Assembly: GCA_034667685.1 (NCBI GenBank)
Contig: JAXDQU010000012.1
Coordinates: 1-64,000, forward strand
DNA from: Thermoplasmata archaeon
Lineage (GTDB): Archaea > Thermoplasmatota > SW-10-69-26 > JACQPN01 > JAJPHT01
Direction: 5' to 3'
Length of the DNA: 64,000 bases
The position numbers are program-made. The stretch's first letter is position 1. Each line of letters begins with the position of its first letter. Positions 26,901 through 29,900 of the stretch are shown here, piece by piece.

Positions 26901-29900
26901 GGCCAGGTGCCCCACGCGCTGCTCGGCGAGCCGGATCGCCGCGAGGACGAGCTTGTGCTCCTCCGCGCGCTTCCGGCCGGCGTCGCGGACTTCGCGGAGC
27001 GACTCGACCTCCTCGACGAGCTGCGCGATGCGCGCCTCCGCTTCCGCGACGCGCGCGCGGGCGGCCTCGCTTTCGATCTGCGCGCGCTGGACCGACTCGG
27101 CGAGCGCGGCCGGGTCGACCAGCGCGCTGCGCACGCCCGCCAGGTGCGCGCGGGCCTCGCGGCGCTGCGTGCGCGCGAGCTGGATCGCGCCGTCCACCGC
27201 GTCGAGGCGCAGCAGGCCGATGAGCAGCCGCTTGCGGTCGGAGGCCTTGGCGTCCGTGAGCGCGGAAAGCTCGCGCTGCCTTGCCACGAGCGTCGTGAAG
27301 AACGCCTCGCGGTCCATGTGGAAGAGGCGCTCCACGTAGGCCGTCGCCTCCTTGCTCGACGCGGCGCCGGGCGGCACGACGAGCTTGCCGTCCACCTTCA
27401 CGGAGGCGACGTGCGCCTCGGACTTCCCGAGCAATTCGCGCACGACCTCGTAGGTGTGCGCGCCGAAGCGGAACTGGAGCAGCACGCGCACGTCGTCGCC
27501 CGGCGCGGCCCCCCGGCGCTTGATGAGGTCCTTGCCCGTCCTCGCGGCGTCGTGCCCGTAGAGGCACCAGCCCACGCTCTCCAGCAGCGTGCTCTTGCCC
27601 GCGCCATTGCGGCCCACGAGCGCGATGACGCCGTCGGGCAGCTCGAGGTCGACGAACTTGAACCGCCGGAAGTTCTGGATGCGGAGGCGGTCGATCCTCA
27701 TCCGCGACACTCCTCCCAGCGTCTTGCTCCAGCCACAGAGGACACAGAGGCCACAGAGGATGATTTGTCTCTCGTCCTCTGTGGCCTCTGTGTCCTCTGT
27801 GGCTGGAGGGAGACAGGCCATGCCATCATTTGGGATCCCCGCCTGCCGCGCTCGCCAGCAATGCCTTCGCCTCGCGGAGCACCGCGTCCCGGTCCGCGCC
27901 GAGCGTCCGCTGGGAGAGGAAGCCTTCGAACTCGTCTTCGAGCGAGCCCAGCGCGGCGGAGACGACGCCCGCGTTCTCGCGGCGCACGATCTCGGGCTGG
28001 AGGTCGAAGTGGAACGCGCCCTGCGTGAGCTGCTTGACGCGGCGGAAGTCCAGCGTGGCGTGGACGTGCGCCGGGATGCCGGTGACGCGCAGCCGCGCGA
28101 TGGCGTCCTGGAGGTCGGCGGCCCCGAGCGCGTCGTACACCGCGCCGGGGGCGTCGGCCTCGGCCATGCCCTCGCAGCGCACCGGGGGCAGCATCTCCAT
28201 GCGGCGCGCGGGGAGCGAGAGCGGCGTCACGGTGCCGCGCGCCAGGTCGACGAGGTTGACGCTCTTCGTCTCGCCGCATTCCTTGAACGTGCAGCGCTCC
28301 GTGCTGCCCGCGTACCAGACCTTGGGCGCCACCTCGACCGCGCGGTGGTAGTGCCCGAGCGCCACGTAGTCCATCCCCGGGGGAATCTCGTTCTGCGGGA
28401 CGACCTGCTCGTGGAACTCGCCCGTCCTGAAGTCGCCCACGCCCACGACGCCCGCGTGCAGCGCGGCCACGTTCCAGCGCGCGCCCTCCGCCGGGCGCAC
28501 GGCGCGCAGCTGCGCCAGGAGCGCGTCGTTGTCCGCGGCGTGCGGGGTCGCGTGGATCGCCAGGTCGCCGACGCGCACCACCTCGGTCTTGCCCTTGTAG
28601 ACCGCGCGCACGCCCGGGATGAACTCCAGGAGGCGCAGCACCGCGCCCGTCTCGCGCAGCCTCGGGGCCTCGTGGTTTCCCGAGATCACGACGAAGGGAA
28701 TGCCCGCCTCATGCAGCCGGCGGCACTGGTCCATGACGTGGTGCAGGGCGCGGTTCGTGGGGCGCACGCTATCAAACAGGTCGCCGCTGTGGAGCACGAC
28801 GTCGACGCGCTTCTCGAGCGCGACGTCGATGGCGCGGCGGAAGGCGTCGAAGAAGTCCTGCTCGCGGGCGTTCAGTCCCTCTGGTGTTACCCGGCTGTAG
28901 GCCGCGAATCCGACGTGGGTGTCGCTGACGTGGAGGAGCTTCATGGTGCGGCCTTCCCGTCCGGGCCGCCTCTGGCGGGGAAACCGCGGAATCTCCGAAT
29001 CTCCGAATCACGCGGAGATTCTGGGATGCCGAGATTCCGTCCTTTTCCGCCGGAGGCGGCTGGAAGCGTCAGTAGAAGTCCTCCCCCACCTTCTCGCGCA
29101 CGGGCACCGCGGCCTCGACCACCACGGGCGTCTTGGCGAGCCGCTCCACGTAGTCCTCGAAGAGGTGGACCTGCGCGGGGATCGCGAAGGGCGCGTAGGG
29201 GCTCGTGATCAGCACCTCGCCGGGCATCAGCGTCTGGATCTCGTTCTCCAGGGACGCGACGTCCTGCTTGGCGCTGTCCTTGAGCGTCTGGCGGTCCTGG
29301 GCGTCGGCGAGGCCCATGATGAAGAGCGTGTTGAACTGGCTCAGGCATTCGCGGTCGACGAGCTTGGGCTGCTGCGTGATGGCGCAGAGGCCGGTCTTGA
29401 ACTTCCTGCCTTCGCGCGCGATCTGGGCGAAGACGTTGGACGCGCTGGCCTTGCCGAGGACGCGTTGCGCCTCTTCGAGCGTGATGAGGATCGGCGGCAC
29501 GTCGTCGAAGCCGTCCTCCGCGAAGAGGCGCTTGTTCTCCTCGAAGACGGCCCGCGCGAGCACGCTGTTGACGAGAAGCTCTTCGGCCTCGGAGAGGCCG
29601 CCGGTGTCCACGAGGACGACCTTGCCTTCGTGGAGCTCGCGGATGACGTTCTTCGTGACGCTGACCTTCTCGTCGCGGTGGACGAGGCCGCTGCGGAAGA
29701 GGCGCGCGATGCGGCGCTTCACGACGCTGATGCTGCCCTCGTGGAAGTTGGGCAGGTCGTTCTTGAGGTCGGCCGGACTGCGGTCGTGGATGTCGGCGAG
29801 CCAGCTCCCGCCGTAGCGCCAGCGCGCGGCGTCGAGCAGCTCGCCCTGGGGGCCGGAGAACTCGAAGAGTTGCTTGAGGTCGGGGATCTCGATCTCGTGC

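Follow-up and report, generated by a model that had tools for sequence, protein, structure and literature searches.

Small palindromic repeats are usually regarded as lineage-bound companions of one transposase. The unit of a REP is an imperfect palindrome of 20–40 nt, the genome that holds it has a Y1 (RAYT) transposase gene, usually flanked by repeats, and REPs are lineage-specific. MITEs, among them Correia, Nezha and the archaeal MITEs, derive from IS elements and are non-autonomous. In Drosophila and other eukaryotes, foldback (FB) transposons have inverted arms made of short tandem sub-repeats in variable and unequal numbers; these arms measure hundreds of bases to kilobases, and most copies are non-coding, some carrying a transposase. 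We know of nothing comparable to FB elements in prokaryotes. Short tandem intergenic repeats of 6–9 nt that distant lineages share include the STRR of cyanobacteria. A passage of one account defines REPs by a GTAG or CGTC tetranucleotide tag (PMC3733652). Two other papers describe short tandem intergenic repeats shared by distant lineages: the TAACTGA repeats of Beggiatoaceae (PMC4679880) and one that is enriched in Xanthomonas and in Nostoc (PMC4692102).

The window analysed here is a stretch of 64,000 nucleotides from the genome of the soil-dwelling Thermoplasmata archaeon GCA_034667685.1 (G000), a short-read MAG that is 99% complete with 1.29% contamination. It contains one copy of a palindromic repeat family, F1, at 27729..27806, where the genome-wide survey's note had placed a hairpin. 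This copy, to which no strand is assigned, is a perfect 35-bp stem closed by an 8-nt loop. Its left arm (27729..27763, + strand) opens with a CCAGC clamp followed by three 9-nt units, each consisting of CACAGAGG and one further base, with the cores lying within 27734-27759. The right arm (27772..27806, + strand) holds three inverted units, with cores within 27776-27801, and closes with a GCTGG clamp. The loop (27764..27771) is unlike the usual loop of the family, which is T-rich, or A-rich on the opposite strand. In an RNA fold of 27720-27815, five further pairs past a one-base bulge extend the stem to 27721..27814. As DNA (27729-27806) the copy folds at -44.7 kcal/mol (z -13.8), a stability reached by none of 200 shuffles; as RNA (27720-27815) it folds at -92.2 kcal/mol (z -14.0). 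The z of -13.7 given earlier was reproduced, the accompanying deltaG of -52.1 not exactly. Overall, F1 spans ~70–150 bp, with arms of 2–5 units and a clamp that varies by lineage.

The hairpin stands between two repair genes on the minus strand. Upstream is mre11 (27826..28944, NCBIfam Mre11/SbcD matches), with its stop 20 nt from the stem; downstream is rad50 (25269..27701), with its ATG at 27701, 28 nt from the stem. NCBIfam Rad50 models match the latter and start aligning at residue 4 of an ORF called at 27710. The presence of herA (29069..30643, NCBIfam HerA matches) on the same minus strand shows that a conserved cluster of archaeal repair genes surrounds the hairpin. The host contig is archaeal, with archaeal genes flanking the hairpin on both sides. 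The mre11-rad50 spacer is 20 or 36 nt in relatives, among them the congener G108 (36 nt, no hairpin), and the two genes are split by F1 in G000. A contig from another soil run (X4), ~92% identical, skips 27702-27852, with 20 other letters separating 27701 from 27853, and shows the site empty. The block without a counterpart in this relative is 27702..27828 (no strand), with edges inferred from a hand alignment; TCAT stands at both edges, a possible 4-nt target duplication. F1 depth in run X4 was 2.6, versus 83–395 in runs X1–X3, all four runs being soil or rhizosphere DNA taken as contigs. The identical F1 locus was also found in a run of a second study.

Scanning G000 for clusters of at least three units gave 59 F1 clusters, of which 58 have both arms, spread over 41 of the 124 contigs. 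These figures are slightly higher than the 56 copies on 40 contigs previously claimed and bear out the multi-copy character of the family. A 26-mer arm with up to three mismatches had 60 matches, and its reversed control had none, as before. The F1-bearing contigs total 1.91 Mb, or 55% of G000, with GC between 0.694 and 0.729. None of the 59 copies is contained in a called gene, so all are intergenic: F1 is a real, non-coding, intergenic, multi-copy repeat of the high-copy extragenic kind. In same-direction gene pairs the median distance from the upstream stop to F1 is 23 nt, and F1 starts within 27 nt of that stop in 20 of 29 such contexts. Divergent gene pairs hold 13 of the 56 placed copies, which is not below their genome-wide share. 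The right-flank consensus is GCTGGAGG, and no T-run downstream of the G000 copies appears in the flank consensus. An all-against-all comparison of flanking ORFs in G000 returned no recurrent neighbour gene; the biggest cluster is an ABC ATPase, at six loci. The ORF between two copies on contig C17 presumably resembles malate/lactate dehydrogenase, judging by its N-terminus.

In G000, arms have two or three units, with unequal numbers in 34 of the 59 copies, and the order of the spacer bases is kept (in either arm the outermost spacer is A 44 times, followed by T). Orientation is nearly even, with 30 T-rich and 29 A-rich loops. Clamp and spacer-base order are common to the 59 unlinked copies, as is, mostly, the loop. 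Twelve copies are nested in a hairpin of another family, and these composites have identical junction sequences. Nor is F1 a lone family, which corrects the earlier picture: long hairpins number 305 in G000 (88 per Mb), in several unrelated tandem-unit families and many with a loop of 0–1 nt, and in a strict scan F1 accounts for 43 of the 305. The congener G108 has its own hairpin families, at 41 per Mb. One and the same gene junction holds a different family from one sister species to another, in the archaeal genus of G000 as well as in the genus of the carrier genome G402. When two other G000 families were sought in five genomes, there were five weak matches in G405 and none in G108, G076, G402 or G403. 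Given several families in G000 and separate families in congeners, part of the explanation must lie in the host and not in the F1 sequence alone.

Within the phylum of G000, F1 was found in 0 of 400 other genomes, including four congeners and four more members of the family, which extends an absence first reported for 40 relatives. In the genome collection, the two-arm pattern occurs in more than 101 stretches across many bacterial phyla. The breadth previously described therefore stands, while the count of 30 matches, all bacterial, does not: one archaeal title, a Methanocellaceae MAG, is among the matches listed and adds a second archaeal lineage. Complete isolate genomes such as that of Sorangium So ce388 are included, and the core is also present in long-read assemblies and in complete genomes or records of cultured Sorangium, Gemmatirosa and Bacteroides. 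A plasmid search again returned Gemmatirosa (11 and 8 places) and Bacteroides, here B. ovatus and B. finegoldii. The scarcity in bacteria that the genome-wide survey's note implied needs correction, as five carrier genomes hold 101–232 arm matches apiece, with controls at 0. The distribution is patchy there too: F1 was found in 0 of 120 other genomes of the order of G402, and at one junction in the genus of G402 it is present in three genomes and absent from at least six, which have an empty spacer of 16–23 nt. A core shared by scattered phyla and a second archaeal lineage looks like a tiny mobile element crossing domains.

Bacterial copies lie from a few to ~35 nt past long ORFs, as judged by a crude ORF method, and also 15–16 nt past annotated or plain stops; the Bacteroides copy has gmd on one side and the GDP-L-fucose synthase gene on the other. 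Among the bacterial copies listed, A-rich sequence precedes the hairpin and T-rich sequence follows, the latter only from about +8. The shared core sits within outer stems specific to each lineage, loops differ freely between carriers, and G405 elements have 4–5 units per arm. The G000 clamp occurs in none of the 101 carrier loci listed, so no donor lineage can be named, and a single match among 2.9 million contigs of a viral collection leaves no transfer vehicle evident. No paper on the F1 repeat was found, as the earlier search had also reported, and works beyond those searched may describe it; 17-mers of the arm matched only an unrelated zebrafish paper.

The decay of F1 resembles that of a selfish repeat: transition mismatches outnumber compensated pairs by 33 to 12 at unit position 4, and G.U-type pairs show no bias between the transcribed strand (14) and the other (13). 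Some pairing nevertheless seems to be maintained, with 12 compensated G-C pairs where 6.1 were expected, and Watson-Crick spacer-1 pairs in 56 of 101 listed copies where 38 were expected. Wobble-type pairs are skewed 42:22 towards the T-loop strand, which the script's counting of G.T and A.C may cause. Copies are kept at orthologous sites of species pairs with flanks 78–86% identical, and in two of four orthologous pairs F1 is inverted in place between species. The greater conservation of arms than flanks in orthologous pairs (109/114 versus 738/921) was dropped as evidence on account of ascertainment bias: the search pattern that picked out both copies of a pair already fixes most positions of the arms.

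The search for a mobiliser covered five enzyme families. Profiles for Y1_Tnp/RAYT (PF01797), DDE_3 (IS630-type DDE) and the TnpB zinc ribbon had no match in G000, and RVT_1 reverse transcriptase (PF00078) had none in G000, G108, G402, G403 or G405. DDE_Tnp_1 matched a single G000 ORF, which is shared by G108, a congener without F1 matches. Not one of the five families occurs in every carrier tested. A self-comparison of G000 gave no repeat of at least 300 bp above 90% identity that could be a longer master copy, and the repeat in G403 is just 117–130 nt long. Single arms inspected in G404 and G405 are parts of degenerate hairpins. We found no autonomous element with F1 ends in the few genomes inspected, and no transposase between F1 arms in G000 or at the 101 loci listed. 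Of 100 listed bacterial copies, 12 have TA on either side; no firm target-site duplication was found at the window insert, in the bacterial copies or in the filled and empty alleles of the G402 genus, whose spacer is too diverged for a duplication to be read. On enzyme, master copy and duplication alike, the genome-wide survey's note had come to the same result.

We lean towards reading F1 as a non-autonomous, horizontally acquired foldback element of REP/MITE-like character. The earlier description of a horizontally spread foldback-like element is supported in part, by the high copy number, the patchy distribution, the absence at the relative's site and the tandem-unit arms, and not by mobility features. 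In such a history, the G000 lineage would have gained F1 horizontally after its split from the ~92% identical relatives, and the element would then have multiplied to ~59 copies. These would persist in intergenic DNA, typically just past a stop codon and sometimes centred in another palindrome. The unequal arms may have arisen by gain and loss of units, and the in-place inversions by exchange between arms; after insertion, the arms collect transitions. To move, F1 most likely serves as a DNA substrate, in hairpin or cruciform form, for an activity that would work in trans and be encoded outside F1. That activity probably reads shape over sequence, because unrelated tandem-unit families thrive in the same genome. 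Once transcribed, F1 would give the upstream message a ~30-bp hairpin at its 3' end, or else place one within an operon, and in either position could change message stability or read-through; the host presumably does not need it.

A broader proposal, which we advance tentatively and judge somewhat unlikely, is that F1 may represent an undescribed class of prokaryotic foldback elements, palindromes whose arms consist of tandem units, spread by a shape-recognising host activity, with no dedicated transposase. Such an activity might be, for example, the processing of hairpins or cruciforms in the course of replication or repair, and any such palindrome could multiply once gene transfer had brought it into a permissive genome. 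This would explain why one family of 9-nt units spans two archaeal phyla and about ten bacterial ones, why several unrelated families are nested and recur at the same junctions, as in G000, and why no transposase tracks with F1.

A different possibility is that F1, mobile or not, is a cis element that the host uses and that selection maintains, whether as terminator, message stabiliser, processing site or protein-binding array. Its position soon after stops in G000 and in bacteria, the A-rich and then T-rich flanks of bacterial copies, its retention at orthologous sites between species and the partial covariation of its arms all fit such a role. So does the general enrichment of inverted repeats past gene ends, described in part of one study as stronger in bacteria than in archaea (PMC13155455). 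However, copies between divergent genes are not depleted relative to the genome, the G000 copies lack a T-run, operons are interrupted by F1 copies, the strand of G.U-type pairs is unrelated to transcription, and 400 relatives carry the same genes without F1; the arm-over-flank conservation that might have argued for selection is a biased measure. Nor do the placements in the window (mre11/rad50) and in Bacteroides (gmd and the neighbouring synthase gene) correspond to where a needed terminator would sit. We therefore consider a selected cis role unlikely. Still less probable is an origin in place, in which palindromes were made and enlarged by replication slippage, template switching or hairpin-capped break repair and would be a trait of permissive genomes instead of a product of transposition, with one transferred seed and gene conversion accounting for the shared sequence. 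The wealth of unrelated long hairpins in G000, many with almost no loop, the separate families of G108, the exchange of families at one junction between sister species in both genera, the unstable unit numbers and the in-place inversions would all be accommodated. Against it, a clamp, a spacer order and mostly a loop common to 59 unlinked copies require copying between loci rather than local origin, and the 12 composite copies have the same junction sequences.

That F1 copies are small structured RNA genes or precursors of small RNAs is very improbable, despite their very stable fold. The only Rfam matches are hairpin-precursor-like, to eukaryotic miRNA families, and all fall below gathering scores (the best, to a miRNA precursor model, scores 63.8 bits where the gathering score is 88), in keeping with the earlier statement that F1 is not in Rfam. 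Moreover, the two orientations are about equally frequent, loops are free to vary, and wobble pairs have no strand bias. An artefact of assembly, binning or contamination might be suspected in a short-read MAG in which 21 long hairpins touch contig ends, the more so as Logan contigs end within an F1 copy. Yet the copies lie within long contigs that make up over half of the genome at uniform GC, contamination is low, archaeal genes stand on either side of the window copy, the same locus recurs in a second study, and complete genomes and long-read assemblies hold the core too. An artefact is thus exceedingly improbable, and ruled out as far as present data permit.

Read as a foldback element, F1 is one short sequence common to archaea and many bacterial phyla, high-copy where present and absent in close relatives, in a genome that lacks all searched transposase and reverse-transcriptase families except for one DDE_Tnp_1 ORF. 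If it moves without a dedicated enzyme, this would be a general route by which palindromic DNA could spread, reshaping intergenic regions and operon junctions such as mre11-rad50, where the 36-nt spacer of G108 corresponds to a junction split by an insert in G000. Hairpins of the F1 type also break short-read assemblies. The cultured carriers Gemmatirosa, Sorangium and Bacteroides allow testing.

How does F1 compare with the systems described to date? It shares with intrinsic terminators a GC-rich hairpin soon after a stop and, in bacterial copies, A- and T-rich flanks. Its stem of 30–35 bp is far longer, however, no T-run follows the G000 copies, it also lies between divergent genes and within operons, and one sequence recurs at unrelated genes. 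Like the STRR, TAACTGA and Xanthomonas-Nostoc repeats, it is intergenic, built of tandem units in the 6–9-nt range, and has the same unit in unrelated phyla; those repeats are mainly direct arrays, whereas F1 is a strict pair of inverted arrays round a loop. REP, BIME and REPIN sequences are likewise short extragenic palindromes in tens to hundreds of copies, found behind genes and in operons, with different families at one junction among related species. In contrast to REPs, the F1 arms are tandem direct 9-nt units that are themselves non-palindromic, the ends are CCAGC...GCTGG without a GTAG/CGTC-type tag, G000 has no Y1/RAYT gene, and the core is common to different phyla and domains.

MITE-like features are the small size, the lack of coding sequence, the inverted ends, the burst of copies, the patchy distribution and the flanking TA pairs of some bacterial copies. 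F1 differs in being almost all stem; G000 and G403 yielded no parent IS that shares its ends, and no clear duplication was found. Its conserved part lies inside variable, lineage-specific outer stems, an unusual arrangement for terminal inverted repeats. The architecture resembles that of FB elements. The F1 arms are short and prokaryotic, with no transposase seen between them, but they too are built of tandem sub-repeats in variable and unequal numbers, two to three units in G000 and four to five in G405.

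The F1 copy at window positions 27729-27806 has a left arm of CCAGC followed by three units, each CACAGAGG plus one base; an 8-nt loop separates this arm from its exact inverse. As DNA it is predicted to fold into a perfect 35-bp stem of -44.7 kcal/mol (z -13.8; 0 of 200 shuffles were equally stable), and as RNA, including five additional outer pairs, the value is -92.2 kcal/mol (z -14.0). The hairpin begins 20 nt past the mre11 stop and ends 28 nt ahead of the rad50 ATG. NCBIfam matches identify minus-strand genes for HerA, Mre11 and Rad50 in the window, together with archaeal-type GlmM, GlmU, riboflavin synthase, replication factor A, PurP and deoxyhypusine synthase. 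Flanks of F1 in the window are 73-82% identical to genomes placed in the genus of the source genome, G000, which is 99% complete with 1.29% contamination. Given these archaeal genes, the flank matches and the completeness figures, the F1 copies are a genuine part of the archaeal genome. The stretch is present in four public sequencing runs (X1-X4), all four of soil or rhizosphere DNA. Directly upstream of herA, beside the herA-mre11-rad50 group, lies a minus-strand ORF of 318 aa (30726-31682) with no NCBIfam match at E 1e-5; judged by its position, it could be NurA, the fourth member of the archaeal repair cluster.

A 26-base F1 arm, allowing up to three mismatches, has 60 matches in G000 and the reversed control has none. 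Our own scan, with at least three units required per cluster, found 59 clusters on 41 of the 124 contigs, in agreement with the 56 copies on 40 contigs counted in the genome-wide survey's note; the 41 contigs sum to 1.91 Mb at a GC of 0.694-0.729. Genes were called with a purpose-written codon-based caller (3563 genes, 88% of the sequence), and none of the 59 copies falls inside a called gene. They lie between 29 same-direction, 14 convergent and 13 divergent gene pairs, and three more stand at contig ends. Genome-wide, these kinds of gene pair make up 65%, 17% and 17%, respectively. Arms carry 3+3 units in 25 copies and unequal numbers in 34. The order of spacer bases is preserved, the outermost being A in 44 copies per arm and the next mostly T. 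The loop is largely one T-rich sequence, read on one strand in 30 copies and on the other in 29.

Outside this genome, a two-arm F1 pattern that matches G000 88 times (both strands counted) was found in 0 of 400 other genomes of its phylum. Over one genome per species the same pattern returned at least 101 stretches. The matches listed (80 with titles) include the complete genome of Sorangium sp. So ce388, a Streptomycetaceae MAG, a Heliobacteriaceae MAG, a Methanocellaceae archaeon and Limisphaerales; by phylum, we take the listed carriers to include Planctomycetota, Acidobacteriota (with Aminicenantes), Chloroflexota, Gemmatimonadota, and Beta-, Gamma- and Alphaproteobacteria. Locus GC among the listed carriers spans 0.45-0.70. 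At up to one mismatch, and with reversed controls all at 0, arm matches number 139 in a Sulfuritalea MAG (G402), 232 in a Planctomycetota MAG (G403), 101 in an Ardenticatenaceae MAG, 108 in Sorangium and 178 in a Methanocellaceae MAG. Within the order of G402, by contrast, a sample of 120 other genomes gave no match. From these counts, the family occurs in scattered members of every group, and the five carrier genomes counted hold it in high copy. A plasmid search returned Gemmatirosa kalamazoonensis (11 and 8 places) and two Bacteroides records; the latter bear a plasmid label, yet housekeeping genes lie on them. Only one of 2.9 million viral contigs matches.

Common to F1 carriers is a core of GCC followed by CACAGAGG units, while the loop and outer clamp differ by lineage. 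CCTCCA stands ahead of the core in G000; many bacteria instead have an A-rich stretch that ends in TTA, with TAA and a T-rich stretch as its mirror image. Bacteroides has TTCAC, and in the Methanocellaceae MAG the centre is ~50 nt. The flanks extend the palindrome by at least 7 nt in 6 of 100 bacterial copies.

Comparison of orthologous junctions revealed both empty and differently filled sites. At mre11-rad50 (window 27699-27853), the congener G108 has a 36-nt spacer without a hairpin (L110), G076 has a different hairpin of 8-nt units (L109), and the contig of G070 terminates in a third repeat (L111), so that, F1 included, three different hairpin families occupy this junction in three species of the genus. 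In run X4, a contig with ~92% identity to the window passes from 27701 to 27853 across 20 other letters, and F1 depth in the hairpin bin is 2.6, vs. 395, 163 and 83 in X1-X3. In a hand alignment, the X4 relative lacks a block of ~27702-27828 that is bordered on each side by TCAT; the two TCATs weakly hint at a duplication of the ATGA stop/start overlap. In X2, from a separate study, the locus is identical letter for letter, and the contigs break within the hairpin. At one same-strand gene junction in the genus of G402 (L156-L171), F1 is present in three genomes, the junction is empty in at least six (16-23 nt spacer), and six more carry three other unrelated long hairpins of 120-224 nt.

Such hairpins are abundant in G000: with a stem of at least 18 and a loop of at most 40, we counted 305 (88 per Mb) on 91 of 124 contigs, eight within called genes and 21 touching contig ends. 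F1 accounts for only 43 of them by this stricter scan. In most of the others, which form several unrelated families, the arms are likewise built of tandem units (6, 7, 8 or 12 nt), and perfect palindromes with almost no loop (0-1 nt) are numerous. Further long hairpins in the window lie at 1-65, 2910-2967, 5042-5118, 14728-14797, 15951-16024, 61710-61781 and 62878-62957. Twelve F1 copies (on C13, C15, C16, C17, C21 (two), C23, C32, C86, C99, C101 and C124) are nested in the middle of a second hairpin, which is built from up to 24 six-nt units and has unequal outer arms; the junctions are conserved. Two more six-nt-unit hairpins surround a member of a third family at C9:27178-27367 and C106:147777-148038. 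Two other G000 families are absent from G108, G076, G402 and G403, and G108 has its own families at 41 per Mb (219-kb sample). In a Pyrinomonadaceae MAG (L075), four tandem-unit hairpins of other families (103-179, 817-872, 1509-1557 and 2921-2984) lie less than 4 kb from an F1 copy, which suggests another genome rich in such hairpins.

Bacteroides ovatus and B. finegoldii (L126:2497-2570, L127:2495-2570) share an orthologous F1-type hairpin between gmd and the GDP-L-fucose synthase gene. Its arms and loop are reverse-complemented against kept flanks, so the whole element was inverted in place. A Sulfuritalea-related pair (L044/L048) is likewise inverted; two further orthologous pairs keep the same orientation. 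Because F1 can invert in place between species, the two loop orientations in G000 need not mean insertion in two orientations. Arm conservation between species was set aside as evidence, being biased by the way the loci were found.

In searches for a mover, G000 proved free of matches to Y1_Tnp, DDE_3, RVT_1 and the TnpB zinc ribbon. Its sole DDE_Tnp_1 match (C118:43878-44414) lies in a 467-aa open frame; as G108 has a 466-aa counterpart, this frame may represent an old gene or a domesticated one. None of Y1_Tnp, DDE_3, DDE_Tnp_1, RVT_1 and TnpB is common to all carriers tested, genes neighbouring F1 show no recurrent family, and the G403 repeat spans just 117-130 nt. Self-comparison of G000 found no repeat of at least 300 bp above 90% identity. 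Segments of ~0.7-1.1 kb that form one family, 85-87% mutually identical, occur at C9:28334-29421, C40:327-1418, C84:9031-12027 and C25:13720-14593, several in tandem on C84.

These observations fit a non-autonomous mobile palindrome that recently entered the G000 lineage and then multiplied. As none of the enzymes searched for tracks F1, tandem-unit families that are unrelated flourish side by side and the same junctions are repeatedly colonised, the data point to a host activity that would accept palindromes by shape as the candidate mover. Some weight must also be given to F1 as a cis element used by the host, a 3'-end hairpin, processing or binding site kept by selection, because it often lies shortly behind a stop and its stems covary in part. 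Within same-direction pairs the first unit begins a median of 23 nt past the upstream stop (at most 27 nt in 20 of 29). Of the pairs in G000 stems, 1695 are Watson-Crick, 64 are transition-type mismatches and 24 fall in neither class, and G.U-type pairs show no association with the transcribed strand (14 vs. 13). The polymorphic unit position 4 has 89 A-T, 12 G-C, 16 G.T and 17 A.C pairs; the 12 compensated pairs compare with 6.1 expected under independence, and mismatches are still more numerous. Among the 101 loci listed, Watson-Crick pairing of the outermost spacers occurs in 56 (38 expected) and that of the second spacers in 13 of 56 (19 expected).

No paper on the repeat was found among those searched. 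F1 resembles REP/REPIN elements and MITEs in placement and copy number. It differs from the former in lacking both a RAYT and the tag, and from the latter in that no parent element, as expected for MITEs, was found in the few genomes inspected. Eukaryotic foldback elements, which unlike F1 have transposase-bearing copies, are similar to it in arm structure.
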